Shown here: positions 25,874-45,070 of the stretch, in pieces
Position numbering within the stretch: the stretch's first letter is position 1
How the letters are laid out: each line of letters opens with the position of its first letter
DNA from: Planctomycetota bacterium
GTDB taxonomy: Bacteria; Planctomycetota; UBA1135; UBA2386
Direction: 5' to 3'
Assembly (NCBI GenBank): GCA_965223545.1
Contig: OZ245006.1
Coordinates: 3,968,001 to 4,032,000 of the forward strand
Length of the DNA stretch: 64,000 nt
Notes under the pieces: generated by a model
The model's database searches: none
What the model was told of the DNA's origin: nothing
What the model saw: only the letters and a program-made list of their open reading frames with translations
Program-made: the position numbers and the translations under genes

Positions 25874-27652
25874 TCAGCGCAGGACGACCTGGTGCGCGTC
25901 GGTGAACCGGACCCCCGTCGCGTCGACTCCGACCCCCTGCATGAAGACCTCGAGGGCGCCGATGGCCGGCGGGACGGGCAGGGTGATGCTCGCCCCACCG
26001 GTGGGCAGCGCGCTGCCCGACCCGCCGAGCACCGAGACGAACGGCGCGGTCGGATCGATCCACAGGCCCGGGGTAGTCGACAGCGGCAGCGAACCCGCGG
26101 GCAAGGGCTGTAGCAGCAGCAGGTAGGGCGCGCCGGCCAGCGCACCCGCCGGCGACGAGAGCGTGGCGTGGACCAGATCCCCCGCGCTCGCGCCCAAGAC
26201 GAACAAGCCCGGACCGTGCGCCGGCACCCAGTTGATGCCGGTCGCCAACCGTAGATCGGCGCCCGAGCCGGGAAACGGGTTCGTGTCCAGGGCCCAGATC
26301 GCGTCGTTGTCGCTGGTCGGGTGCTGCACGCAGATGTACATCCGGTACGGATCGTTGGGATCGGCGATGAGGCCGCTCGGCTCGGTGCCGGCGACGCCGA
26401 GGCTGGCCAACATGCCGATGGCCTCCGCCACGCCGTCGCGATCGGCGTCGAACACCTTCCACACGTCGCCGGGCTCCTCGTCCTCGACGACATACAGCCC
26501 GCCGAACGCATCCTGCGCCATGTTGTCGGGGTCGTCGAAGTTGGTCTGCGCGTCCGGTCCCGGGTCGCCCAGGGGATCGTTCTGGGTGGGATTGACATCG
26601 GCGCCCGTCGCCAGATTGATGGTGTCGAAGTCGACCAGCACCCGCACGTCGACCGTGGTCGCGTCCAGCAGCTCGATGGTCAAGACGCGGTTCTCGCTGG
26701 TCAGCGCGACGTAGACCGCCTCGTTGCCGTTTGCCAACCGACCGATCTCGATGTCCTCGGGCCGCCCGTAGGGGGTGCCGCCGACCTCGTCGGCCGCATC
26801 GCGCCCGCCGGTGACGGTGACGTAGGCGAACGGATTGGCCACGGTCAGCGGAACGCCCATAGGGTCGGTGAGCGGCACCCAACGGCCGGGCCCGAAGCGG
26901 CTGGCGTTGAGATTGATCGGCGTGGACCAGGGCTCGGCTGCCCTGGTCGAAGTGCTGGCGGCAAACGCGTCGATGCTGAGCGCGAAGCTCTGCCCCACGG
27001 TCAGATCTCCAGGAGTCTGCGGGGTGAACTTGTAGATCGAGCCGGAGTCGTCCTCGTCGACGAAGTACAGACTGCCGGCCGCATCGAACCGCAGGCCCTC
27101 GTGCGCGACCGCCGGGACATTCGACAGCCAGCGCACCCCGTACGGCTCGGCGCCGAACGGGTTCTGCACTTCGAACAGGCGGCCGCCCGTGGTCTCCTCG
27201 CCGGTGAGGATCGAGTTCCACGGCGTCAGCGTCGCCGGATCGAGCTGCTTGTAGTCGCCGACGTTGGGGACGAACAGCTGAGGGTTGCTCTGCCGGTTGC
27301 CCGAGCCATCACCGCGCATCAACACCACGAACGTGGCAGTCTGCATGTCGTAGCGGAACAGCCCCGACCCGGTACCCACCTCGCACGGCACGACCAGGTA
27401 GCGACTGCTCGGGTCGACCGCCAACATGTCCCAAGTGCGGAAGCTGTTCGGCAACCCGGACGGCAACAACGTGGCGCGGTCGGTGATCCACGTCTGCGTC
27501 ACGCCCTGCGGCAACAAGAACGGAGCTGTGTTCTCCAGATGAGTGCGGGGCGGCGTTGTCTGTGGCAGCGGAAACAACTGCCCGGCGGCGGCCGGACAGA
27601 GCACGATGCCAACCAGGACAGCGCGCGCGAGCGATCCTGAGTCTTCGAACAT
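25874..27652 (-). CDS. PhoX-family (DUF839) alkaline phosphatase-like exported protein with extra C-terminal domain
   Basis: LTPW..ILTGEE, AHEG, DEDDSGSIYKF, YGRPEDIE, FDDPDNM, VEDE, EPSG, VQHP; Sec-type signal peptide. Confidence 0.85.
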   Translation of the reverse strand: MFEDSGSLARAVLVGIVLCPAAAGQLFPLPQTTPPRTHLENTAPFLLPQGVTQTWITDRATLLPSGLPNSFRTWDMLAVDPSSRYLVVPCEVGTGSGLFRYDMQTATFVVLMRGDGSGNRQSNPQLFVPNVGDYKQLDPATLTPWNSILTGEETTGGRLFEVQNPFGAEPYGVRWLSNVPAVAHEGLRFDAAGSLYFVDEDDSGSIYKFTPQTPGDLTVGQSFALSIDAFAASTSTRAAEPWSTPINLNASRFGPGRWVPLTDPMGVPLTVANPFAYVTVTGGRDAADEVGGTPYGRPEDIEIGRLANGNEAVYVALTSENRVLTIELLDATTVDVRVLVDFDTINLATGADVNPTQNDPLGDPGPDAQTNFDDPDNMAQDAFGGLYVVEDEEPGDVWKVFDADRDGVAEAIGMLASLGVAGTEPSGLIADPNDPYRMYICVQHPTSDNDAIWALDTNPFPGSGADLRLATGINWVPAHGPGLFVLGASAGDLVHATLSSPAGALAGAPYLLLLQPLPAGSLPLSTTPGLWIDPTAPFVSVLGGSGSALPTGGASITLPVPPAIGALEVFMQGVGVDATGVRFTDAHQVVLR

Positions 27653-27775
27653 CGGGTGGAGAACGGTACCCCGCCCGCAGCGGTGTCGGCCAGCCGCGGG
27701 TCTTCCGCAGCTTGGGTGGCGCCCCATTCTGAAAAACCCTGATCCGCTTCTCGGGGACGGACGTCCGCGCGCGCT

Positions 27776-30685
27776 TCAGCGGCCGATCGTCAGCAAGCCC
27801 GCGTCGGACAGCACCACTCCCGCGGTGTTGGCCGGCGGATCGGCGATCGCCCATTGAGAGACCAGCTGCCCGCCCACCAGGGCGGCGTTGGCCGGGATCA
27901 CCAGGGGGAACGCCACCTTGCCCAGGGAATTGGTGGCGATCGGCAAGCTGATGACCGGGGTCGTGTAGAGGGTGCACCCGGGCATGCCCAGGGCGGCCAG
28001 CGGCAGCGCGGTCGGCATCGCTCCCACGGCCCACGCCCCGGGCATCAGCCCCGGCGCGGTCCGCAGCTGGGTGAGGAGCGGGGCGCCAATCTTGACGACA
28101 CCAGCGAACTCGCTGCGCGGCAGCGCGCCGGCGGAACCCGCACACGGTGCGCCGAACACCACCACGTCGCCCGGATCGGCGGCGCGCTGGCTGGCGAACA
28201 CCTCCACCCGACCGTTCTGCTGCGCGCCGGGCGCGCCCGGTGAGCCGACGCCGATCTCGGGCAAGCCATCGCCGTTCAAGTCCCCCAAACCGCGCGCCAC
28301 GCGGGTCTGGTCGAACGGAAGCGTGCCCGTGAAGGTCTGCAGGACGCGCCCGTCGAAGCCCGAGTAGATCGACACCCATCCGGTGGGCAAGCCCGACGAC
28401 AGCCCGTTGGTCGCCCCCGCGGCGAAGTCGTCGTATCCGTCGCCGTCGTAATCACCGATGCCGCCCACCGCCTCGCCGAGCTGGTCGCCCGGGTCGGTGC
28501 CGAACACCGTGTGCAGCACGCTGCCGTCCTTGCCCGAGAACACTCGCGCCATGCCAGCGTCCTGGATGGCACCGCCGTTGGGATCGTGCCGGTACGCGCC
28601 GACGATGAGATCGGGCACCCCGTCCGCGTTGGCATCGCCGATCGGCGCCAAGTCCCAGCCAAACAGGTCGCGCGTGCCGAGACCGTTGAACGTCTGCAAG
28701 ACGCCACCGGTGCCGGTCGAATAGACGGTGACCGTGCCGTTGCCGATCGGCACCGTCTGGCCCGAGGGCGCGCCGACCGCCAAGTCGTCCTTGCCGTCGC
28801 CGTCCCAGTCACCCACGTTGGCGGCGGACCAGCCGAACCACGCGCCCAAGGGACCGACGAACGTCAGACCAGGAATCGCAGTGCCGGTCGCCCCGCTGTA
28901 GATCACCACCTGGCCCGTGCCGCTCGCCGACGGATCCGAATCGGAGATGAAGTAGTCGTCGACACCATCGCCATCGAGATCACCCATGGTGCCGACCCGG
29001 GTGCCGCGATGCATGCCGAACAGCGTCCCGGTGTGGGAGCGCAGCAAGTTGAAGTTGGCTCCGCTGTAGATATCCGCCCGACCCGCGTCGAGCAGGGACC
29101 CGCCGACCGCGTCGTAGTGATAGACGCCGATGATCAGGTCCATCACCCCATCCGAGTCGATGTCGCCGGCGCGTTCGAAGTCGATGCCGAACCAAGTTCC
29201 GACCTGCTGGGTCTCGGTCCACGACTTGATGACGGTGTGCGTCGCGCCGGAGTACAGCTCCACCTGACCAAAGCCGGTGGGCGCCGGACCACAGCACATG
29301 TAGTCCGGGACCTGGTCGCCATCGATGTCGCCGACCGACTTGATGACCGAGCCGTACTGCGTGCCGGCGATGCCCGGCGAGTGGGTCGCCACGACGGTCT
29401 CTCCATCGCGCGGACCACCGCCGTGCAGCCGGGCCTGGCCGGCGTCGGCCCCCGCCGTATCGTCGCCGGGAACGCCGACCAAGACGGCGCCATAGCCGTC
29501 GCCACTGGTGTCTCCGCCGACGGAGACCGCGGTGCCGGCCGCATCGCCGGCGGTGCCGAGATAGCTCGCCAGCGGCCAGCCGCTCGCGCCGGAGAACAAC
29601 CGCGCCAAACCCGCGCCGACGCCACCGAGATCGTGGCCGGGCGCGCCGACCAAGGCGTCGCTGCGGCCGTCGCCATCGGCGTCGTGCCCAAGCGCGACTG
29701 CGCTGCCGAACGCATCACCGGCGGCATCGCCGGTCCAGCTCCAGAGGAGAGCACCGGTCGCGCCCGAGAGAACCGCGGCGGCACCCGCATCGATCCCCGC
29801 GGTGTCGTCGCCGGGGATCCCGACCGCGACATCGGGGGCGCCATCGCCATCGACGTCCGCGCCACCGCTCAGCGCGGTGCCGGCCGCGTCGCCGGCGACC
29901 GCACCCTGCCAGCTCCACAGGACGGCAGCCGTCGCGCCGGAGTGGACGTGGATGGCGCCCGCATCGGTGGCGGTCGCGTCGTCACCGGGCACGCCGACGA
30001 CGAACTCGGCGCGACAATCCCCGTCGAGATCGCCCACCGCCGCCACCGCGCTGCCGAGCGCATCACCGGCCGCGCCGCCGGTCACGGTATGGAGCAGCGT
30101 CGCGGTGCGCCCCGACCAGATCTGGCAGCGGCCGGCGTCCATCGCCGCGGCGGAGAGATCGAAGCCAGGTGCGCCGATGCCGACATCGGCGTAGCCATCG
30201 GCATCGACATCGCCGACTCCCGCCACCGCACTGCCGAGCGCGTCACCGGCGGAAACGCCGTCCACGGTGAGCAGCACGGCACCCGTGGCGCCGGAGAACA
30301 CCTGGGCGCGGCCCGCATCGGTCCCGCCTTGGTCGGCACCGGGGATGCCGACCACGACATCACCAACGCCATCGCCGTCGAAGTCGCCGGCAGAAGCCAC
30401 TGCCGCGCCGAGCTGATCACCGGCATTGGCACCGGTGAACGTGTGCAGGACCGCACCGGTGGCGCCCGAGTACAGCGTCGCGGTGCCGGCTCCCGCGGTC
30501 GGCGCGCCGACCAACACGTCGGCGCGCCGGTCGCCGTCGGTGTCGCCGACCACGGCGACCGCCCGACCGGCCTCGGCCCCCGCGCCCCCTCCATTCACCG
30601 CGAACTGCAGGGGTTGTTGGGCTGCGACCGGTACCAGCAGGACCGTTGCCAGGGAGGTTCCAAAAGACAGGCTGCGCATGATCAT
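27776..30685 (-). CDS. Exported FG-GAP (integrin-alpha-like) repeat protein, 14 repeats plus C-terminal domain
   Basis: 14 G..(F/L)G.....GD.DGDG..D...G.P repeats with DxDxDG Ca loops; signal peptide ending VAA-Q; alternative ATG at 30679. Confidence 0.92.
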
Positions 30686-30903
30686 GGTTTCCACGTCCGC
30701 AAACGCCGCGGGGAGACGCGCCGGGGCTCGGACAGCCAAGAAAGGTGTGTGTGTTGTCGAGACAGTTCCGACCCGAACGGGCCTTGGGACTCTGCCCCTG
30801 CATAAGGCTAACTCACGTCTCCGGAGGTTGCCTAGCCCCGACGGCAGCGCGCGTTCGGCGCTGAGCGGGCCCCGCTTGCAAGGGCCGGGTGTATGGGCCG
30901 GGG

Positions 30904-31776
30904 TCAGTCGGCGGGAGGGGCGCTGGCGGCGGGTCCGAGGCCATTGGCCTCGTCGGGCGCCGATCCGGCCACCGCATCGTCGACATCCGTCTCCGCGTCC
31001 TCGCTGGCGTCCTGGTGCTGCAGGGCCAGAAGCTGATCCACCGACAGGTGTTGCGGGCCGACGAAGACCACCAGGATGGGGTCGTCCCACTGCTGCTGGT
31101 GCGCCCGCAGCAGTCCCTGCTTCATCAGCTCGAGCACTGCCGAGAACACCCCGATGAGCCCGTAGCGCCCCTCGGCCCGGTCGAACAAGTGCTCGAACTG
31201 CACCTCGCCCTTGCCGACGAGCCGGTCCAGCACCTGCCCGGTGTAGTAGCGCACGTCGCGACGCTCGACGTCGACGTGCATGGTGGTGTCGGTGCCGGTC
31301 TCTTCCAGCAGCTTGGCGAACGCCGCGGTCAGGCTCCAGATCTCCACCGAGCCCAGGTCGAGCTCCGGCCCCTCCGGCTCGCGCGCGCGCAGCGCCTCGG
31401 GCAGGGGCAGGCGCGGACTCACCATGCGGCCGCGCTGCTGGCCCATGCGGTCCAATCGACGCGACAGGTCGCGGTAGCGCTTGTACTCGAGCAGTCGCCG
31501 GATCAGGTCGTCGCGCGGGTCGAGCTCCTCCTCGACCGACACTTCCTCGCCCGGCAGGAGCTCACGCGACTTGATCTCCATCAGCGTGCTCGCCATCACG
31601 ACGAAGTCGCCGATGTCGGCCAGATCGAGCGTCTTCAGCACGTCGAGGTGCGCGAGGTAGCCCTCCAAGATCTTGGCGATCGAGACCTCGTGGATGTCCA
31701 CCTCCTGCTGCTTGATCAGGTGCAGCAAGAGGTCCAGTGGACCGGCGAACACCGGCAGCTCCACGCGGTAGGACAT
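30904..31776 (-). CDS. scpA: Segregation and condensation protein A
   Basis: F.GPLDLLLHLI...EVDI, DFVVMASTL.EIKSR.LLP, DPRDDLIRRLLEYKRY, F.AVLELMK. Confidence 0.93.
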   Translation of the reverse strand: MSYRVELPVFAGPLDLLLHLIKQQEVDIHEVSIAKILEGYLAHLDVLKTLDLADIGDFVVMASTLMEIKSRELLPGEEVSVEEELDPRDDLIRRLLEYKRYRDLSRRLDRMGQQRGRMVSPRLPLPEALRAREPEGPELDLGSVEIWSLTAAFAKLLEETGTDTTMHVDVERRDVRYYTGQVLDRLVGKGEVQFEHLFDRAEGRYGLIGVFSAVLELMKQGLLRAHQQQWDDPILVVFVGPQHLSVDQLLALQHQDASEDAETDVDDAVAGSAPDEANGLGPAASAPPAD

Positions 31777-31906: not shown

Positions 31907-32878
31907 ATGGATCCCAGGATCGAACGCGCCAAGGACATCGTGCGGCGGGAAGCCGACGCGGTGCGCATGGTCGCCGACCGCCTCGACGACACCTTCGCGG
32001 CGATCGTCGACCGAATCCTGGGATTGCCCGGCCGGGTCGTCACGGCCGGAATGGGCAAGGCCGGCATCATCGCACAGAAGATCTCGGCAACGCTGTCCTC
32101 CACCGGCACGCCGTCGATCTACCTGCACCCGGCCGAGGCCATCCACGGCGACCTGGGCCGAGTGGTCGGTGGCGACTTGCTGCTGGCGTTGTCCAAGTCC
32201 GGTGAAACCGAGGAAGTGTTGCGGCTGCTCGGGCCGGTCAAGGCCGCGGACTGCGCCGTGGTGGCCATCACCCAATCGCGCGAGTCGACCCTCGGCCGGC
32301 ACGCCGACCAAGTGCTCGAGCTGGGCCCGATCGAGGAGGTGGGACCTCACCAGCTGGCGCCGAGCGCTTCGACGACCGCGATGTTGGCGCTCGGCGACGC
32401 GTTGGCCCTGGTGGTGCAGGACGGCCGCAACTTCGGCCCCGAGGAGTTTGCCCGCTTCCACCCCGGCGGCGATCTCGGCCGCCGGCTGATGCGGGTCGAG
32501 GAGCTGATGCGCACCGGCAAGCGCAATCCCGTGGTGCGGGCGGGCTGCACGGTGCTCGATGCGATCGAGACGATGACGCAAACGCTGGGACGACCCGGTG
32601 CCACCAGCGTGGTCGACGAGAACGGCACTCTGGTCGGGTTCTTCACCGATGGTGACCTCCGTCGCCTACTCACCAGCCTGACCGCGCCAGTAGATAAGAT
32701 GCGCATCGAGGACGTGATGACGCATCAGCCGCGCACGATCTCGCCGGACACGTTTGCCAGCGAAGCCATCGCCTTCCTGCACCAACACAAGATCGACCAG
32801 CTACCGGTCGTCGACGATCGGGGCTGCATCGCCGGCATGCTCGACGTGCAGGATCTCTTGGACTTGAAGATCACATGA
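31907..32878 (+). CDS. kdsD: Arabinose-5-phosphate isomerase (KpsF/GutQ; SIS plus CBS)
   Basis: GMGKAG.IA.KISAT.SSTGTP, HP.EA.HGDLG, SKSGET.E, APSAST, FHPGG.LG, TDGDLRR. Confidence 0.95.
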   Translation: MDPRIERAKDIVRREADAVRMVADRLDDTFAAIVDRILGLPGRVVTAGMGKAGIIAQKISATLSSTGTPSIYLHPAEAIHGDLGRVVGGDLLLALSKSGETEEVLRLLGPVKAADCAVVAITQSRESTLGRHADQVLELGPIEEVGPHQLAPSASTTAMLALGDALALVVQDGRNFGPEEFARFHPGGDLGRRLMRVEELMRTGKRNPVVRAGCTVLDAIETMTQTLGRPGATSVVDENGTLVGFFTDGDLRRLLTSLTAPVDKMRIEDVMTHQPRTISPDTFASEAIAFLHQHKIDQLPVVDDRGCIAGMLDVQDLLDLKIT

Positions 32879-33408
32879 CCGCGATCCCGGCCGCCGAGAT
32901 CCTGGCAGGAGTTCGCCTGCTCCTGACCGACGTCGACGGTGTCCTGACCGACGGCCGCATCCACTTCGACGGCGCCGGCACCGAGTTCAAGACGTTCCAC
33001 GTCCACGATGGCGCCGGCTTGGTCTACTGGAATCGAAGCGGCGGAATCAGCGGCTTCCTCTCGGGGCGCTCCAGCCAGGTCGTGCGCGACCGCGCCGCCG
33101 AGCTCGGCGTGCAGGAAGTCCACTTGGGTCACTTGGCGAAGGTGCCGATCCTCGAGGAGATCGTCGAGCGTCGCGGCTTGCGCCCGGCGCAAGTGGCCTA
33201 CGTCGGCGATGACCTGCTCGACCTGCCCGTGCTGTCCCGCGTCGGCTTCGCCGCCGCGCCGGCCAACGCCCGCCCCGAAGTCAAAGCCAAGGTGCACTAC
33301 GTCACCGAGACGCGCGGCGGCGAGGGCGTGGTGCGCGAGGTCATCGAAGTGCTGCTCAAGGCGCAGGGCAAGTGGGACGCCGTCGTCCGGCAGGACGGCT
33401 TGCCGTGA
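32875..33408 (+). CDS. kdsC: KDO-8-phosphate phosphatase (HAD family)
   Basis: DVDGVLTDG, KTFHVHDG, YVGDD..D, GG.GVVRE; ATGA overlap with kdsD. Confidence 0.93.
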   Translation: MTAIPAAEILAGVRLLLTDVDGVLTDGRIHFDGAGTEFKTFHVHDGAGLVYWNRSGGISGFLSGRSSQVVRDRAAELGVQEVHLGHLAKVPILEEIVERRGLRPAQVAYVGDDLLDLPVLSRVGFAAAPANARPEVKAKVHYVTETRGGEGVVREVIEVLLKAQGKWDAVVRQDGLP

Positions 33409-36293
33409 TCGGGCGCATCGCTGCATTCCTGCTGCTGGCCGGCGGCGGATTCGCGGGACTGTGGTGGGCGACCGGCGGATCGGCGCTCGCGGGGCGCGGC
33501 GAAGGCCTCGTGCTCGACGCCGACACGGACCGGACCGCTCCGGTCCCCAGCGTACTGATCCCCGGGGCCGCGCCCGAGGGCGAACAGGACGGCGACGAGT
33601 TCGGCACCGACGTGCGCTTCGCCTACCGCGGCGCGTTCGAGGACCTCGGCACCTACCGCGAAGTGCCCCTCGGCGATGGCTCGTTCCGGCGCCTGCCCAT
33701 CTACAAGCTCAGCGCCGCCGACATGGAGCCGCGACCGTTGGGCCGCGTCTTGCTGCACGAGGTCACGGTCGAGCTGTTCGAGCGCGACCGAGACCGACCC
33801 ACCGAATCGGTGCACGCCGGCACCCTGACCGCCGATCGCGCCGATGTCGTCATGCAGCCCAACGAGGACGGCACGCCGTCGATCGACACCGGCAAGGACA
33901 TCACCCTGCATCGAGCGGTGTTGGTGACCACCGCCGCCGCACAGGTCAAGAACGCGCGGCTCGAGCTCGACGAAGCGATCGTACGCATCGACGAGCGGGC
34001 CATCGATCTGCGCACGGTCAAGGACGACCAAGCGTTCTCCTTGACCATCGACGACCGCGGATCGATGGCCCTGTCCGGCCTGGGCCTGACCGCGCGGCTG
34101 CCGCTCGACCGCGGCGAGCAGCGGCCCGATCCCACCGACCGGCTGTCGATCCGGGTGAAGTCGGCGGCCGACCTGCGCCACCGCGGGCGGCGCGGAGGAG
34201 TGCAGCTGCGCTCGGCGGGACCGATGAGCTACGTCGAGGATCCCTCGTTCGGCACCGCCATGGTGACCGCCGCGCGCGAGGTGGTGCTGACCGACGGCGG
34301 CGCACCCGAGCCGGCCGCGGCCGGCGACCAACAGCAGCCCGATCGGGGGGGCTTCATCGCGACCGGCGATCGTGTCACCGCGCGGCTGCGCCGGGGTGAG
34401 CGCGTGGCCGGCCGCGTCACCGGCGCCTGGCAGCGCATCGAGCTGAGCGGTGCCAGCGATGTGCCGGCGACGCTGACGATCGGCGGGGTTCGCATCCGCA
34501 GCCAGACCCTGCGCGGCTCGCCCAACTTGGTCGGTGAACCCTACGCCTTCACCGCCAGCGGCGCGCCCGAGCTCGACCAGGTCGGCGACGAGACCGGCAT
34601 GCGGTTCGCGTGTTCGGATCGGGTGCACGTCGTGCAGATCCACGACTACTGGCAGCCGTGGATGGGCGCGCGCGGCTTCGGCCCGCGCAGCTTTCCGGCC
34701 CACGTGCGCCTGCTCATGACCTTCGTCGGCAAGACTTCGGTGGTCGTTCCACGCGGCGACGACACCTTGCAGCTGGAAGCCGAAGAGGGCCTTTGGGTCA
34801 TGCGCCCACAGACTCGACAGTGGCCAGCGGTGGTGCGCGGCAAGGGCGCGGTCGCGGTGCGGGGCGCGGGCGCCGGTCCCGGCGCCATCGACGTCAGCGG
34901 TACGGACGGCTTCTTGCTCTACGGCGACGCGCGCGGCCAGCACGTCCGCCTCGGCCCGGAGGTGGCGGACCTCGAACATCGATTCTCGATCCGCACGCCG
35001 CAGCTGGTGGCCGAGGGCAGCGGCGCATGCTCGCTGCGCCAATCGACGGACGTCGACCAACCGCACCAGCTGCGCATTCACGCACCGGGCAACGATGCGG
35101 TAGTGACACTCGTCGAGCAGGACGGCGAGCTGCGCAATCTGCAGCGGCTCACCGCAACCTTCGACGACGGCGGGATCCGCGACTTCGAGGCATCGGGACC
35201 CGACAGCGCGCTGCACTGGACCGACGGCGAGGACGTGATCGTCGGTCACGCGGATCGCCTGGTCGGTGCGGCCGATGGCCCGATCCGGTTGTTCGGCGCG
35301 CCTGCGAAGATCGACTCGGAGCGACGCGGGGAAGTGCACGGCGAAGCGCTGTCGGTGTATCGCTTCGGCGAAGACTCCATCGGCCTGCGCGCCGACGGCG
35401 CCGCCCGCGCTTTGGGCAGCCACCGGACCAGCGACGGGGCCGTGGTGCGCTTCGACCTCACCGCTGAGCAGGCGTTGCTGCTCCCGTTCGTCGTACCGAC
35501 TCCGCTGTTGGCCGTGCACACGTGGTTTCTGCCGCCGAGCGCCGCGGCCGCCCTCAGCGGCCTCGATCAAGAAACACTGGTGGCGACGCGCGCGATCGAT
35601 CTCGAGCTGACTCGCGGCGAAGAGTCCCCGGTCCGCGGCGATGGCGACGCGTTGCGACTGCGCTTCACCGATGACGGCGCCGACGGCGCGCTCCGCGGGG
35701 CACCGGCGACGATCACTTCGCGCGATCACGCCGGCCAGCGCCTCACGGCAATCGCGACCGTGCTGCAGCTCGCCCGCGACGGCGACGGTCAGGTGTTGCG
35801 CATGCCCCACGATTCGGCCCGGCCGCCCCTCCTGGAACTCGGCGACCGCCGCGGCGCGCTGGCGCGGTTCGGCGATCCGGCGGGCAGCACGCGGTTGTCC
35901 TGCGCTGGCGACATCACGGTGGCCCCGGCGGCGATTTCCTTCGGCGGCAGCACGGCGATCTCCGCCTGGCTTGCCGACGGCACCCCCGATGAAGACGGGT
36001 TCACCGCCGATGCGCGCACCCTGCACATCGAGCGAAACGCCGATGGTCGCGTGCGCCGAGTGGTCGGCGAGGACGTGCGCGATTTGCGTTGGAACAGCGT
36101 GCGCGCCCGCGCCCGGCACCTCGACCTCGACTTGGCCACCGGCACGTGCCAGGTCTACGATCCGGCCGGCGGCGTAGAGCTCACGCTGCCCGGACGCGGC
36201 TGGGCGTTGTGCCAGTGGGCGGAGTTCAACGTCGATACCTATCACGCCCGCATTCGACGCGGCGTGGTCCGGGAGGAACTGGCCGGTCGATGA
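33405..36293 (+). CDS. Very large membrane-anchored LptC/LptA(OstA)-like beta-rich protein
   Basis: N-terminal TM helix; LptC-like pattern YKLSA...LL.EV.V..F..LTADRA...SGLG..A.L; beta-strand periodicity throughout; GTGA/ATGA overlaps with kdsC and lptD. Confidence 0.6.
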   Translation: MIGRIAAFLLLAGGGFAGLWWATGGSALAGRGEGLVLDADTDRTAPVPSVLIPGAAPEGEQDGDEFGTDVRFAYRGAFEDLGTYREVPLGDGSFRRLPIYKLSAADMEPRPLGRVLLHEVTVELFERDRDRPTESVHAGTLTADRADVVMQPNEDGTPSIDTGKDITLHRAVLVTTAAAQVKNARLELDEAIVRIDERAIDLRTVKDDQAFSLTIDDRGSMALSGLGLTARLPLDRGEQRPDPTDRLSIRVKSAADLRHRGRRGGVQLRSAGPMSYVEDPSFGTAMVTAAREVVLTDGGAPEPAAAGDQQQPDRGGFIATGDRVTARLRRGERVAGRVTGAWQRIELSGASDVPATLTIGGVRIRSQTLRGSPNLVGEPYAFTASGAPELDQVGDETGMRFACSDRVHVVQIHDYWQPWMGARGFGPRSFPAHVRLLMTFVGKTSVVVPRGDDTLQLEAEEGLWVMRPQTRQWPAVVRGKGAVAVRGAGAGPGAIDVSGTDGFLLYGDARGQHVRLGPEVADLEHRFSIRTPQLVAEGSGACSLRQSTDVDQPHQLRIHAPGNDAVVTLVEQDGELRNLQRLTATFDDGGIRDFEASGPDSALHWTDGEDVIVGHADRLVGAADGPIRLFGAPAKIDSERRGEVHGEALSVYRFGEDSIGLRADGAARALGSHRTSDGAVVRFDLTAEQALLLPFVVPTPLLAVHTWFLPPSAAAALSGLDQETLVATRAIDLELTRGEESPVRGDGDALRLRFTDDGADGALRGAPATITSRDHAGQRLTAIATVLQLARDGDGQVLRMPHDSARPPLLELGDRRGALARFGDPAGSTRLSCAGDITVAPAAISFGGSTAISAWLADGTPDEDGFTADARTLHIERNADGRVRRVVGEDVRDLRWNSVRARARHLDLDLATGTCQVYDPAGGVELTLPGRGWALCQWAEFNVDTYHARIRRGVVREELAGR

Positions 36294-38743
36294 CACGCGC
36301 CAGATGGGGGGGGGCCGCGCTCGGTTGCGCGATCTTGGTCGGCGGCATCGGTCTGCGCGCGCAAGCACCGGGAGCGGACGGGGTTTGGTTCGAGGACTTC
36401 GAGACCCACCCCGCCGGCGACGACGTCGTCACCACCGTGCGCAACGGCATCGTGGTGATCCGCGACGGTCTCGAGCTGCGCGCGGACGGGGGGGTGTTGA
36501 TCGCGGATCGCGATGCGGTGCCGCCCTTGAGTCGCTCGTCGCCGGGCTTGCCACGGCGGGGTGCGACGCCACCGGCGGCGCGCCGCGCGGTCGACGATGG
36601 CCTGATGGCGGCGCGCTTGGCCGCGTTCGCGCACGCCGCCGGCGTCGACAGCGGTGCGCCGGCGCTGTCGCCCCGGCAGTGGTCGCCCAGCAGCTGGAAG
36701 AGCCTCTATCTGGAGGGCGACGTCGTCGTGCGCCGCGACGGCCGTGACCTGGTCAGAGCGGCGCGCTTGCACCTGTCGACCGTCGACGACCGTCTGGTCG
36801 TGGAGGACGCGGAGCTGCGCCTCTGGCTGGACTCCGATGCGCCGCAGCGCGTGCTGGTGATCCGCGGCGAGCGGCTAGTGCGGCAGGGCCGGCGCATCAC
36901 CGGCCGCGACGTGTCGGTGACGACCTGCACCGCCGGTGAGCCCCACGTCGAGGTCTGCTCCGGCGAGATCGAGGTCATCGAACGCGGCGACGATCTCGAA
37001 GTCCGCACCGCGGGCTCGTCCCTCGTCATCGGCGGGGTATCGCTGTTGCCGCTGCCGAACGCGCGCTTCATGGCGGGCGAGCAAACCCAGACCCTGGTCC
37101 AGGGCGTATCGGCGGGCTACTCCAGCAACGAAGGCGTGCGCGCCAACATCGATCTCGGCGGCTCGCTCAACGCCCTCGGCGGCGCTCTGCACGAGCAGCT
37201 CACGGGTCGGGCGGCGGCGGAGTTCCGCGGCGATTGGCGGCTCGGGCTCGGCGTCATCGAGGAACGCGGCGCGCCGGTCGAGCTCGAGCTGCGCTACGGC
37301 GCAGCCGACGTCTACTCCGGGCGCATGCTGGCCTATGGGCTGGACGACGACGGGCCGGACCGCCGCGAGATCCGTCGGCGTCTCGACGGCAGCCCGATCG
37401 ATGCGCGCGGCAGGTCCTTGCTGCACACCGAGAACCGCGTCCACCTCGGCGAGAACACGCGCCTCGACGTCACCGCGTTCGCCGCCTCCGACCCGGCGGT
37501 CTACTCCGAGTTCTTCCGCCGCGAATACCGCGAAGACGAGCTCCCCGAGACCAGCGTGCTGCTGCGCGACGCGCGCGACAACCGTCTACTCATCGCCAAC
37601 GCGCGCCTCAACATGTCGACGTTCGCCTACCGAGACGACCGCTCGCTGGCGCCGGCGTTCGACGAGGAGCTGCCGCTGCTCGGCTACCACTGGTTCTCCG
37701 AGCCGGTCGCGACTCTGTGGGGCGACACCGACGTCCTGCTGACGTCGTCGACCGGTGCCGGCTTCCTGCGGCGCGACTACGACCGCACCGCCGTCGAGGT
37801 CGACGACGACGTCTTTCGGCTGGACCAGGAGCTGGTGCTGGCGACGCCCTTTCACCTCGGGCCGATCGGTATTCGGCCGTTCGTCGCCGGTCGCGTGACC
37901 CACTACGACGAGACCGTCGGCGGCCGGGACGACACGCGGCCCGCCTTCGCGGCGGGCGTGCGGGCCGCGACCTGGATGGCGCGCACCTGGACCTGGCGCG
38001 GCGATGACGGCACCGGTCAGGCGCTGCGCCACGTGATCTCGCCCGCGATCGTCTACCGCGACCAGTTCCACGTCGGCGGCGAGCCCGGCGACTACTTCCA
38101 ATACGACGCAACCGACGCGATCGACGAGCGTGCCACCGTGCGTTTCGAGCTGCTCAACCGGCTCCAGCACCGGGATGGCGACCGCGCGCCCCGCGACGTC
38201 GTCTGGCTCGACCTGGCGCAGACCCTGACGCCGATCTCGAGCCGCGACAACCGAGGCCACCATCTCGCCGAGCTCGAGTACGAGCTGATCCTGCGGCCCG
38301 CCCCCGACGCGGGGCCGTTGCCGGGGCTGCAGCTGTTGGTCGAAGGCGAGCACGACTGGCATGCGTCCAAGCAGCGCACCTTCAACACCGGAGTGCGGTT
38401 CGGCAAAGTGCTGGGCTTCCACTGGCACGCCGGCTATCGCTCCGACCGCACCACCGACGGGGCGGTCATCTACGGCGCGCGCACCGACCTCTTCGGCCGC
38501 TGGCTGCTGGCGGGCGGCAGCCAGTACGACCTACAGCGCGACGAAACCCTCAACTACGGCGCGCAGATCGTCCGCGTCGACCACGACTGGCGACTCTCGC
38601 TCGGCGTGACGTTCGACGAGATCGACGGCGACACCAGGTTCTTCGTCAACTTCGAACCCACGCTGGGCGGGCTGCTGGCGCCGCGGCGCACGCGCTACCT
38701 GAGCGGGTCGGCCTGGGACGCGGACCGGATCTACCAGCCCTGA
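36290..38743 (+). CDS. lptD: LPS-assembly outer-membrane protein LptD-like
   Basis: Signal peptide, jellyroll N-domain (GDVVV..A..L), VTTC...PH motif, GYSS..G, SDP.VY.EF, amphipathic barrel strands to the C-terminus. Confidence 0.8.
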   Translation: MTRARWGGAALGCAILVGGIGLRAQAPGADGVWFEDFETHPAGDDVVTTVRNGIVVIRDGLELRADGGVLIADRDAVPPLSRSSPGLPRRGATPPAARRAVDDGLMAARLAAFAHAAGVDSGAPALSPRQWSPSSWKSLYLEGDVVVRRDGRDLVRAARLHLSTVDDRLVVEDAELRLWLDSDAPQRVLVIRGERLVRQGRRITGRDVSVTTCTAGEPHVEVCSGEIEVIERGDDLEVRTAGSSLVIGGVSLLPLPNARFMAGEQTQTLVQGVSAGYSSNEGVRANIDLGGSLNALGGALHEQLTGRAAAEFRGDWRLGLGVIEERGAPVELELRYGAADVYSGRMLAYGLDDDGPDRREIRRRLDGSPIDARGRSLLHTENRVHLGENTRLDVTAFAASDPAVYSEFFRREYREDELPETSVLLRDARDNRLLIANARLNMSTFAYRDDRSLAPAFDEELPLLGYHWFSEPVATLWGDTDVLLTSSTGAGFLRRDYDRTAVEVDDDVFRLDQELVLATPFHLGPIGIRPFVAGRVTHYDETVGGRDDTRPAFAAGVRAATWMARTWTWRGDDGTGQALRHVISPAIVYRDQFHVGGEPGDYFQYDATDAIDERATVRFELLNRLQHRDGDRAPRDVVWLDLAQTLTPISSRDNRGHHLAELEYELILRPAPDAGPLPGLQLLVEGEHDWHASKQRTFNTGVRFGKVLGFHWHAGYRSDRTTDGAVIYGARTDLFGRWLLAGGSQYDLQRDETLNYGAQIVRVDHDWRLSLGVTFDEIDGDTRFFVNFEPTLGGLLAPRRTRYLSGSAWDADRIYQP

Positions 38744-42089: not shown

Positions 42090-43586
42090 TCAGGCGAACT
42101 GGACCACCGTCAGCAGACTGTGCACCAGGAGAATCGTCACCATCCCCAGCACGATGCACGAGTTGACGGCATTTCCGACATCGCGGCCGGATCGTTTGGG
42201 GCCGATCGCGAGGTGGTAGGTGAGGGTGGCCACCAAGAAGCCCGACAGCACGGTCTTGAGCAGGATGTAGCGCAAGTCCTGGCGTTCTACGGTGCGAAAG
42301 AACGACTCGAGCCAACCAAGCGTCGATGCATCGGTGAACAGCTTGTAGGCGATGAACGACGACAGCGAAGCGCCGACGATCCCGGCGGCGGTGACGATCG
42401 GCATCGCGATACTCATCGCCCACACCAGCGGCGTCAGCAGGTAGTCCGCCGGCCGCACCCCCATCAGCTGCAGGGCGGCGACTTGGTTGGTGCGCTTCAT
42501 CGTGCCGATGCGCGCTGCCGCGCCGGCAGCCATCCGCGCCGTGAAGAAGAAGCCCGCCATCAACGGCACCAGCACCGCGACCAGCACCTTGCCGACACCG
42601 GTCAACAGCTGGTTGGTGAACGCGCTCTCCAGCGGGTTGTTGTCCAACGAGAAGAACGTCGCCAGGCCACCGATGGTGACCCCGGCGAGCACGGTGAACA
42701 GCACTGGCTCCACCGTGTAGCGCAGGACGGCGCGCGCGACGACCCGGGCAAAGACCGGCGGCAACCGAAGCACGGCCTCGACCGCGGTGTGCGTCAGTGC
42801 CGCGGCGCTGAGGACGACCTGTCGCATGCCGTACAGCGCCGGGTCCTCGTCCACCTCGACGCCACCGGGCTGCTCGCCGTCGACCTCTACCAACTCGGTG
42901 CCACAATCGTGCAGCGTCCGGGTGGCCGGGTCGAGGCGCAGCACGCGATCCGCCAGGCCGGCGAACGCCTGCACTTCGTGGGTGATCACGATGGTCGTGC
43001 GGCGCGGCGCGGCCCGGTGCGTGTCCGCCAACAGTTTGGCGATCTCGCGCGCCGACTCGGCGTCGAGGCCGGCGGTGGGCTCGTCGTACAACATGAGCTC
43101 CGGATCGAGCGCCATGGCGCGCGCCACCGCGACCCGCTTGCGCATGCCGCCCGACAGCTGTGCGACGCTCGCCGGCGGCGCCGCCAAACCGGCCTGCGAC
43201 AGCAGGCCGAGCGCGAGCTTCGGCGAACGCCCGGCAGTGCGCAGGGCGAACTCGACGTTGCGCCGCGGAGATAGCTCGTCGAGAAGCCCCTCGTCCTGCA
43301 GCACTGCGGCGACCCGTCGCCGCAGCGCGGCCGGCAGCGCGCCGCGGACGCGATGCCCGAGCACGCGGACCGCGCCGGTCAGGCGAGGCGCCGGCTCCCG
43401 CGTCTCCCACAGACCCGTCAGCAACCGCAGGATCGTCGACTTGCCGGAGCCGCTCTCACCGACCAGCAGGCAGAACTCGCCGCGCTCGACCACCAAGTCG
43501 ACGCCGCTGAGGATCGGGAGATCCCGTCCCGCGCGGCGGTGCGCGAGCCCGAACCGCTCGAACTCGATCGCCGCCCCGGTGGTCAC
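42090..43586 (-). CDS. Fused MlaF-type ABC ATPase plus MlaE-type permease
   Basis: GESGSGKS, LSGGMRKRVAVARA, YDEPTAGLD, ITH; C-terminal P....F.AR.....A.IGTM....Q..AL..MG..P..YL..P MlaE signature. Confidence 0.9.
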   Translation of the reverse strand: MTTGAAIEFERFGLAHRRAGRDLPILSGVDLVVERGEFCLLVGESGSGKSTILRLLTGLWETREPAPRLTGAVRVLGHRVRGALPAALRRRVAAVLQDEGLLDELSPRRNVEFALRTAGRSPKLALGLLSQAGLAAPPASVAQLSGGMRKRVAVARAMALDPELMLYDEPTAGLDAESAREIAKLLADTHRAAPRRTTIVITHEVQAFAGLADRVLRLDPATRTLHDCGTELVEVDGEQPGGVEVDEDPALYGMRQVVLSAAALTHTAVEAVLRLPPVFARVVARAVLRYTVEPVLFTVLAGVTIGGLATFFSLDNNPLESAFTNQLLTGVGKVLVAVLVPLMAGFFFTARMAAGAAARIGTMKRTNQVAALQLMGVRPADYLLTPLVWAMSIAMPIVTAAGIVGASLSSFIAYKLFTDASTLGWLESFFRTVERQDLRYILLKTVLSGFLVATLTYHLAIGPKRSGRDVGNAVNSCIVLGMVTILLVHSLLTVVQFA

Positions 43587-45070
43587 GGGGTCGGCCTCAG
43601 ACCCTCCGGCACCAGGGACAGCGAGACCATGCGACCCGCCCCGGACTGACCGCTCTCGTTTCCGCGCAGCGCCACCACGCGCTCGCCGACCACTGCTGCG
43701 GCCCCTCGAGTGGCGGCATCGTCGGCCAACGCCGATGGATCGGCCGGCGCCTTCGACACGACGCGGTCGTCATCGATCGAGTACAGCTGCACCGAGTCGA
43801 CGCCCTGCCAGTCGTCCGTGAACTGCAGCCGGCCCGCCGCCGTCAACGGCACCGCAGCCTTGTCCGCGCCCTCGAGATCCAACATGAGCAGGGTCAGATC
43901 CTCGCCGTCGGGAGCGACCCAAGTGCGCATCGCGCGCAGCACCGTGCCGTCGGTCAGCTGAATGCTGATCCCCTCCTTCTTGATCTCCGGATCGGCACCG
44001 AACGCGTCGCGCTCGAAGTAGCTCGCGTCGCTGACCGTGCGCGTAGTGGCCACCAGCACACGTCCTTCGCGATCTTCGTACAGCACTCCCGTCCCCTCGC
44101 GGCGGATCTCGTCATCCGGACTCCACCAGTCCTCCTCGACCGCCTCGTAGATCACGCGCGCCAGCCGGATGCCGGTCTCCGCCGGCGGCTCGTCCTGGTT
44201 CGTGGCCACGCGTTCGACCGGGATCTTGTCCAGCGTGAGCTCGGGACGCTGGGTCTCGGCGGCGAGGACGCTGCCATCGGACAGGGGCAACCCCGCGCCG
44301 GGTTCGGTGAAGTAGCTGACGAACGGCGCCAACAGAGCACCGATGTCGTGCACGTCGATCCCGCGCAACAGAGCGCCGGACAGCCGCGGCCGCGCGACCC
44401 AGAACTTCGTTTTATCGGTGACCGTGGCGCGCTGGTCTCGCTCGATGCGGACGTGCAGCCGCACGTGGCCGCCGTCCGCCGCGAGTTCGATCCGCCGCAC
44501 CTCCCCGGTCTGCACGCCGCGGTACATCACCGCCGAACCGGGCTGCAGACCGTGGTTCTCGGGCAACAACAGCACCAGCTGCAGATCGCCGCGCTTGGCC
44601 GGGGCGAAGCTCAGGTCCGTCGCGTCGGCGAACGGTTGCTCGTCGCCGGCGACCGAGCTGCCGTTGGCGAGCTGCACGCCGAACGGATCGGGCGTGTAGA
44701 ACGACAGATACGCATCCCGCACCAGGGTGTCGAGTCCGGACGCCCCCCCCGTGATGCCGCCGAACCGCGGAGTCACGATCCAGAAGTGGCTGTTGGTGCG
44801 CGCCAGCCCTTCGCGGCTGGGCTCCAGCACGATCGTCGCGATGCCCTTCTTGCCGTCTTCACGCAAGGTCACGTGTCGCACGCTGCCGACCAGGACGCCG
44901 CGGTACTTGACGTCGGCACCGGGCAGCAAGCCCCCGACGTCGCGGAATTCCACGTTCAGCCGGAAGTAGCGACTCTTGTCCTCGTCCTGCAGCAGCTCGA
45001 CCAAATACCAACCGCCGGCGACCGCCAGCGCCAACGTGACGACACCGAGGAAGTAGCGAAAGCGATCCAT
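43583..45070 (-). CDS. MCE (MlaD/PqiB-like) protein with two MCE domains and a C-terminal degenerate trypsin-like domain
   Basis: TM anchor; F.DVGGL.PGADVKYRGV.VG.V...FW.V.P and GLQPGS.VMYRGV.TGEV...KFWV.RP. Confidence 0.88.
   Translation of the reverse strand: MDRFRYFLGVVTLALAVAGGWYLVELLQDEDKSRYFRLNVEFRDVGGLLPGADVKYRGVLVGSVRHVTLREDGKKGIATIVLEPSREGLARTNSHFWIVTPRFGGITGGASGLDTLVRDAYLSFYTPDPFGVQLANGSSVAGDEQPFADATDLSFAPAKRGDLQLVLLLPENHGLQPGSAVMYRGVQTGEVRRIELAADGGHVRLHVRIERDQRATVTDKTKFWVARPRLSGALLRGIDVHDIGALLAPFVSYFTEPGAGLPLSDGSVLAAETQRPELTLDKIPVERVATNQDEPPAETGIRLARVIYEAVEEDWWSPDDEIRREGTGVLYEDREGRVLVATTRTVSDASYFERDAFGADPEIKKEGISIQLTDGTVLRAMRTWVAPDGEDLTLLMLDLEGADKAAVPLTAAGRLQFTDDWQGVDSVQLYSIDDDRVVSKAPADPSALADDAATRGAAAVVGERVVALRGNESGQSGAGRMVSLSLVPEGLRPTP

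Follow-up and report, generated by a model that had tools for sequence, protein, structure and literature searches.

In a 64,000-nucleotide stretch of a Planctomycetota genome (contig OZ245006.1, positions 3,968,001 to 4,032,000; hereafter the window, with coordinates counted from its first letter), the slot between kdsC and an lptD-like gene is filled by one reading frame encoding a protein of 962 amino acids (aa), designated X (33405..36293, + strand, GTG start), which very probably serves as a one-piece LptC-plus-LptA bridge carrying lipopolysaccharide (LPS) from LptB2FG to LptD. This single-chain interpretation is preferred because of the gene slot, the polarity of the predicted fold, the same polarity in sequence profiles, the lack of a second candidate, in-frame fusion to LptD in relatives, and the activity of an engineered LptC-LptA chain. 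Modelling predicts that X starts with a membrane helix and continues as a row of about five jellyroll units of the Lpt type.

Gene order, conservation and predicted fold of X

The operon begins with kdsD (31907..32878, +), encoding a 323-aa arabinose-5-phosphate isomerase with one SIS and two CBS domains (TIGR00393, 274 bits against a cut-off of 203.7; Pfam SIS and CBS), followed by kdsC (32875..33408, +), encoding a 177-aa KDO-8-phosphate phosphatase (TIGR01670, 147.7 bits against 107), X, and a separate gene for an 817-aa LptD-like outer-membrane translocon (36290..38743, +), present in a single copy in the genome. Overlaps of 4 nucleotides (nt) join kdsD to kdsC, kdsC to X (GTGA) and X to the lptD-like gene (ATGA), and the gene order, coordinates and tight coupling of X to both neighbours described in the first-pass annotation were thus borne out by the sequence readout. 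An alternative GTG start for X lies upstream at 33372; the start at 33405 is preferred because 17 of 19 relatives begin with the same -4 overlap. Coding-type base use (GC content of 0.87 at third codon positions versus 0.53 at second positions), together with relatives recovered by a single-query search in 33 of 36 genomes of the same family, indicates that X is a real gene.

Across the 19 best relative loci, X ranges from 927 to 992 aa and is directly preceded by kdsD and/or kdsC in every case, with the -4 overlap on kdsC in 17; lptD follows in all 18 loci that reach that far. Over the 19 loci, the X/lptD overlap is 4 nt in 15, -1 in two and not determined in two. The final alignment contains 99 rows, 88 of them full-length (878-1122 aa). 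A word-indexed homologue search with X returned nothing beyond X itself, and a single-sequence query found it in none of 24 genomes from other families of the order, where profiles are needed; at E <= 0.001 the X profile picks out 262 among 1.84 billion representatives. The ESM Atlas clusters nearest X are mostly from Planctomycetota, and those of both X and the LptD-like protein carry the name 'hypothetical protein'. In Pfam and NCBIfam, X has no meaningful match, the sole weak one being DUF7120 (E 0.12). The names given here to X and to the LptD-like protein rest on relatives and folds, since neither has a meaningful match of its own in these collections. X has no match to the LptC profiles TIGR04409 or PF06835, and its relatives mostly fall below the cut-off, with one above it (L223, 39.6 versus 38). 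Weak matches in relatives are nevertheless ordered along the chain: TIGR04409 near residues 50-250 (E down to 6.9e-7 and 2.2e-9), and TIGR03002 (E 1.7e-5) as well as PF03968 near the C-terminal end. Sequence profiles of the relatives therefore give the same polarity as the fold, with LptC-like matches at the N-terminal end and LptA-like matches at the C-terminal end.

An AlphaFold2 model of X built from the 99 rows (mean predicted local distance difference test, pLDDT, 90.2; predicted TM-score, pTM, 0.75) was searched against 48,161 chains. The model opens with a helix at residues 2-22 (33408..33470, +), a conserved hydrophobic segment predicted to be an inner-membrane anchor, and continues through a low-confidence linker at about residues 23-72 (33471..33620, +; pLDDT below 50 across most of 26-70) into nearly uninterrupted beta strands. 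The two top chains of the search are LptC 6mit_C (Z 14.2, root-mean-square deviation (rmsd) 2.4 over 146 residues), which matches the LptC-like part at residues 73-342 (33621..34430, +), where the weak TIGR04409 matches of relatives also lie, and LptH 4uu4 (Z 13.4, rmsd 2.4 over 122 residues), which matches the LptA-like C-terminal unit at residues 820-959 (35862..36281, +), where relatives match TIGR03002 and PF03968. LptC 3my2 superposes on residues 99-266 (Z 11.8, rmsd 2.4), LptA 2r19 on the C-terminal end (Z 12.9), and the N-domain of LptD on the model with Z 12.1. On this model, the polarity of X fits the transport pathway, with an LptC-like start and an LptA/LptH-like end.

The middle part, residues 343-819 (34431..35861, +), consists of confidently modelled beta strands that probably form about three more jellyroll units. 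MORN-repeat sheets come next in the fold search (Z 9-11) and are the matches listed for this region; its second half, as modelled in a fused relative, can be superposed on LptA 2r19 (Z 13.8, rmsd 2.1), and a profile of the C-terminal unit detects weak internal repeats in the middle of X (E 0.01-0.2). When strands of at least 10 residues are counted as two half-strands, at 0.48 nm per rung, X has 43 rungs, which is 5.4 times the part matching one LptA, and would measure about 21 nm if straight. The N-terminal helix, LptC-like first domain, continuous beta build and LptA-like end that had been read from the sequence all reappear in the model and fold search, and the proposal of several jellyroll units fused into one chain in the lptC/lptA slot is upheld by fold matches at both ends, by the lack of a separate lptA or lptC in the searches below, and by a natural fusion. 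Counting units on the model gave about 5.4 LptA-sized units in an estimated 21 nm; residues 343-600 were not directly matched to Lpt proteins. The segment ARARHLDLDLATG (residues 901-913), previously quoted for the LptA-like end, does lie inside the LptA-like part, but it is weakly conserved (best columns D909 in 75 of 92 rows and A901 in 66 of 93) and is no signature. When X(1-290) was predicted in complex with LptF and LptG, the score was 0.24, below the mark of 0.32, which counts neither way.

Other Lpt genes and alternative readings

Elsewhere in the genome, lptF/lptG, lptB, lptE and lpxC are all present above their cut-offs. At G000:C1:4188081-4192281 (-), lptB comes after lepA-lepB (neighbours named by eye), with no lptA beside it, and no lptA or lptC candidate adjoins lptB or lptFG. 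Searches with PF03968, PF06835 and TIGR03002 gave nothing credible in this 91%-complete genome, and purpose-built profiles of X, its N-terminal end, its C-terminal end and LptD recovered only this locus in a six-frame search of the genome. With the genome at 91% completeness and X itself missed by the public profiles, a separate lptA or lptC is best described as not found rather than absent. A second match to the C-terminal profile (E 0.0044) was rejected as a spurious frame across a tandem DNA repeat (G000:C1, ~5215600-5216804), which has a unit of ~195 bp in about six near-identical copies and a periodic translation.

Several observations weigh against the assignment of X as an LPS bridge. 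X itself matches no Lpt profile in Pfam or NCBIfam, its own profile reaches LptA in the PDB at E 1 only, and its ESM Atlas recognition score is low (1803). Residues 343-600 have no direct Lpt match, the matches listed there being MORN-type sheets, and Foldseek with the whole model was uninformative (TM-scores <=0.16). The length is a strand-count estimate rather than a measurement on coordinates, and a small divergent LptA could escape insensitive Lpt profiles in an incomplete genome. Finally, residues 27-29 of the window's X read A-L-A, a possible signal-peptidase site.

It is very improbable that X, though an Lpt-fold bridge, chiefly carries another lipid or lipoproteins instead of LPS, or that it is an AsmA/TamB-like lipid channel merely resembling Lpt. 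The middle of X does match generic long beta sheets, and the accessible parts of two papers report an Lpt-like system in LPS-free Borrelia (PMC10353723) and lipoprotein traffic through LptDE (PMC12065857); but X is coupled to genes for 3-deoxy-D-manno-octulosonic acid (Kdo) in 19 of 20 further loci of the phylum, lpxC, lptB, lptF/G and lptE occur in the same genome, the best folds are those of LptC and LptA, and in a sister family (f10) X is fused to an LptD-like barrel. TamB or AsmA chains are not among the 50 matches listed for the fold search, where LptC and LptA rank first; families beyond those listed may still resemble X.

A further alternative concerns the N-terminus, where a cleaved signal peptide would leave X as a soluble giant LptA-like rod docking on LptF without an anchor, and would make the fused form an LptD whose periplasmic arm is very long, rather than a chain spanning two membranes. 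The A-L-A motif, the roughly 50 low-confidence residues after the helix, and the reported function of E. coli LptC without its helix all speak for it. However, by a crude rule that looks for A-x-A close to where the hydrophobic stretch ends (and is not SignalP), such a motif occurs in only two of 20 X proteins of the family, one of 10 split f10 forms and three of 59 fused proteins, as against 10 of 18 stand-alone LptD proteins. The N-terminal segments of X are also more hydrophobic than those of stand-alone LptD (median 2.5 versus 1.6) and mostly end in aromatic residues. By this crude rule, the N-termini of X and of the fused proteins favour anchors over cleaved signals across the family, though less plainly in the window's X with its A-L-A, and the signal-peptide alternative appears unlikely.

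Fusion of X to LptD, distribution in the phylum and neighbouring genes

The identity of the downstream gene is supported by a profile of the LptD-like protein and nine relatives, which gives six PDB matches, all of them LptD (best E 3.4e-6), and which detects 238 of 251 genomes of the phylum. This wide occurrence agrees with Speth et al. (PMC3422733), the relevant passage of which treats LptD and not bridge proteins. The window's LptD-like protein has no match to PF04453, and one fused relative matches it below the cut-off (E 4.7e-4); in close Atlas clusters, PF04453 is assigned to 71-80% of members. A jellyroll N-domain and a 26-strand barrel are indicated by the PDB profile matches and by the homologous part of a fused relative's model. 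Beyond the signal region, the number of cysteines in stand-alone planctomycete LptD copies is 0-3, in most cases one at a common position. Since E. coli LptD has two disulphides, bonds of that type cannot form in the same way in these copies.

In f10, a sister family within the same order, the open reading frame (ORF) after kdsC often continues into LptD. A profile of the fused protein matches 138 of 142 f10 genomes, and in 109 of these a single in-frame match crosses the X/LptD junction (three of them with a stop in another part of the match, one broken within X). Among the other 29, four are fused and 11 split at the locus, and 14 fall outside the locus check, bringing the fusion to at least 113 of the 138 matching genomes, with 59 distinct full-length proteins of 1596-1930 aa. 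Of eight fused genomes, seven have a single LptD match and one has two; lptF/lptG were found in all five tested. LptE was detected in one of five, and no loss of LptE is claimed because its profile is weak. Three fused genes (L143, L072, G138:C66) carry a break or frameshifts in the X part, reflecting either assembly error or real splitting.

No signal-like segment occurs at the X/LptD junction of the fused proteins. In a model of the C-terminal 1148 residues of one of them (59 rows, pLDDT 80.9, pTM 0.51), strands run on through the junction at pLDDT 85-89 and 26 barrel strands can be counted. Foldseek ranks LptD first (E 1.9e-26), the fold search superposes LptD with Z 22.5 and rmsd 3.3 over 468 residues, and the alignment of full-length LptD 5iv9 starts at model residue 376, which is the junction; a PDB sequence search with the fused profile returned nothing. 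In the relatives, continuity between an LptA-like C-terminal end and the LptD N-domain is thus seen both as a natural fusion and as a continuous modelled junction.

This seamless join leaves no free end for another LptA, and therefore argues against X being mainly a spacer or tether that sets the distance between membranes while the lipid travels on a small LptA that escaped detection. A rigid rod would serve as a tether, and in planctomycetes the inner membrane folds inward apart from contact sites (PMC5394234), but no other LptA candidate was found in the genome, and such an arrangement is regarded as extremely improbable. A tether role of X can nonetheless add to transport.

The fusion may not have a single history. 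In LptD trees, seven fused proteins, whose linkers are mostly longer and variable, group with 11 split f10 forms (SH-aLRT 96), suggesting from sequence a second origin of the fusion within f10; in the approximately unbiased (AU) test, on a tree built by a quick method from the LptD part only and with 30 of 52 main fused rows, a single fused clade is not rejected (p 0.076). Fused proteins from L123, L125, L126, L120 and L132 reach 1819-1930 aa, with 100-200 extra residues in the X part. Judged from these sequences, bridge length is not constant even among the fused proteins. Outside f10, apparent fusions did not hold up: reading out L186 and L189 showed GC-rich open frames, L185 has a separate X ORF, and L188 was judged a GC-rich open frame on low GC3 only.

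Across Planctomycetota, a broader X profile of 27 rows, drawn partly from the 251-genome set that it searched, matches 122 of the 251 genomes, and the weak matches may include LptD N-domains. The 39 loci outside the class that were chosen by lptD divide into 10 in which a long and complete X (826-1112 aa) stands between a kds gene and lptD, two with a partial or broken X, and 27 without a recognised X at that place. In 20 further loci chosen by an X match, kdsD and/or kdsC lies directly upstream in 19, and X spans 630-1062 aa. A long chain after kdsD/kdsC is accordingly widespread in the phylum, where X ranges overall from 630 to 1122 aa, and its linkage to lptD is not universal. The shortest forms (630-664 aa) occur in L225, L226, L227 and L241, three of which belong to low-GC genomes of 2.5-4.4 Mb. 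At L232 (1264-5339, -), kdsD-kdsC is followed by two consecutive ORFs of 927 and 432 aa, both matching the X profile and both starting with signal-like rather than anchor-like segments, possibly a two-piece or longer bridge.

Around the operon, scpA (PF02616; 30904-31761, -) is divergent from kdsD. The same strand also encodes an FG-GAP-like repeat protein (ORF 27776-31090, -) and, at 25874-27727 (-), a probable PhoX-like phosphatase. The two were named by eye, and their C-terminal tails look alike by eye as well (25874-31090). About 3 kb from the lpt operon is a fused transporter of the Mla/Pqi lipid type (42090-45070, -), in which a 494-aa protein with two MlaD stretches is directly followed by a 497-aa ORF whose single chain unites an ABC ATPase (PF00005) with an MlaE permease (PF02405).

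Proposed transport route and relation to known systems

By analogy with E. coli, the helix of X would sit in the inner membrane beside LptF/LptG, its N-terminal unit would take LPS from LptF, ATP hydrolysis by LptB would push LPS along the continuous groove of X, and the last strand of X would pair with the strand that opens the LptD N-domain for hand-over, a joint that would be made covalent in the fused f10 relatives. The coupling to Kdo genes and the presence of lpxC point to LPS as the cargo. Such a bridge would have a fixed length, about 29 nm overall by an estimate in which X (~21 nm) replaces two units, and would work where both membranes lie close together. For E. coli, the available text of PMC5575297 gives a periplasm of 21 nm and a minimal bridge of ~16 nm. 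According to PMC5394234, in the part available, planctomycete inner membranes invaginate largely while staying close at contact sites. A bridge of ~29 nm is modestly longer than that of E. coli and far short of the large planctomycete invaginations. These figures do not establish the first-pass suggestion that the length of X suits a wide planctomycete periplasm, and lengths in the phylum also vary from 630 to 1122 aa. With moderate confidence, the Planctomycetota LPS bridge may be viewed as a fixed-length molecular ruler, which f10, perhaps twice, turned into one polypeptide with an inner-membrane helix and a 26-strand outer-membrane barrel folded by BAM (the machinery for beta-barrel assembly), that is, a covalent trans-envelope LPS conduit pinning the membranes together. 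In the accessible part of PMC4817254, short-tethered LamB failed to assemble in the outer membrane and was toxic; the long arm of the fused form could let the barrel reach BAM, or the helix may be cleaved.

Compared with LptC of E. coli and Enterobacter (PF06835, TIGR04409; 6MIT, 3MY2), X likewise follows kdsD-kdsC and has an N-terminal helix and a superposable first part; unlike LptC (a single unit of ~190 aa), X is five times longer (its full-length relatives span 878-1122 aa), carries insertions in the LptC-like part and itself falls short of the profile. Its residues 820-959 superpose on LptA/LptH (PF03968, TIGR03002; 2R19, 4UU4) with Z 13 and rmsd 2.2-2.9 and likewise adjoin the LptD N-domain, but they belong to a 962-aa chain in which the unit is repeated, whereas LptA is a separate small soluble protein, of which none was found here, and lptB is not adjacent. 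X is consequently not filed as a member of LptC or LptA, as neither its size nor its profile scores fit either family. Relative to LptD (PF04453; 5IV9, 8H1R, 4Q35), the fused relative has the same modelled N-domain and barrel, but in f10 LptD forms the C-terminal part of a chain with an LptC-like N-terminal end, and stand-alone planctomycete copies are cysteine-poor. AsmA-like TamB and YhdP are also single long inner-membrane-anchored beta-groove chains across the periplasm. X shares this long beta build, but differs from them in family and partners, being encoded with Kdo and Lpt genes and matching LptC and LptA best. [quoted passage not shown] Both proteins join LptC and LptA in one chain; the engineered one is artificial, has two units and is active when reconstituted, whereas X is natural and has about five predicted units. 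The full-text literature searched, which excludes most subscription papers and supplements, yielded no account of an LptC-LptA of several units or an LptC-LptA-LptD fusion occurring in nature.

Thanatin binds the LptC-LptA and LptA-LptA joints, and thanatin-LptA structures are among the fold matches listed for X, which as a single chain would be without those joints. The same single chain would be a convenient object for determining the structure of a whole LPS bridge. X would also explain why the Lpt set of planctomycetes has been reported as seemingly reduced (PMC8871954), the parts being present but missed by standard profiles. In E. coli, the copy number of LptA in the bridge and the need for its assembly and disassembly are described as unsettled in the accessible part of PMC5575297. 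Nature here offers a series within the gene itself, from separate LptC and LptA, to one chain of 630-1122 aa, to a chain that includes LptD. This series makes it possible to test whether bridge dynamics are dispensable, how BAM folds a barrel possibly still tied to the inner membrane, and, with the short forms of X (630-664 aa) as a natural contrast, whether the spacing of the membranes is set by bridge length or dictates it.

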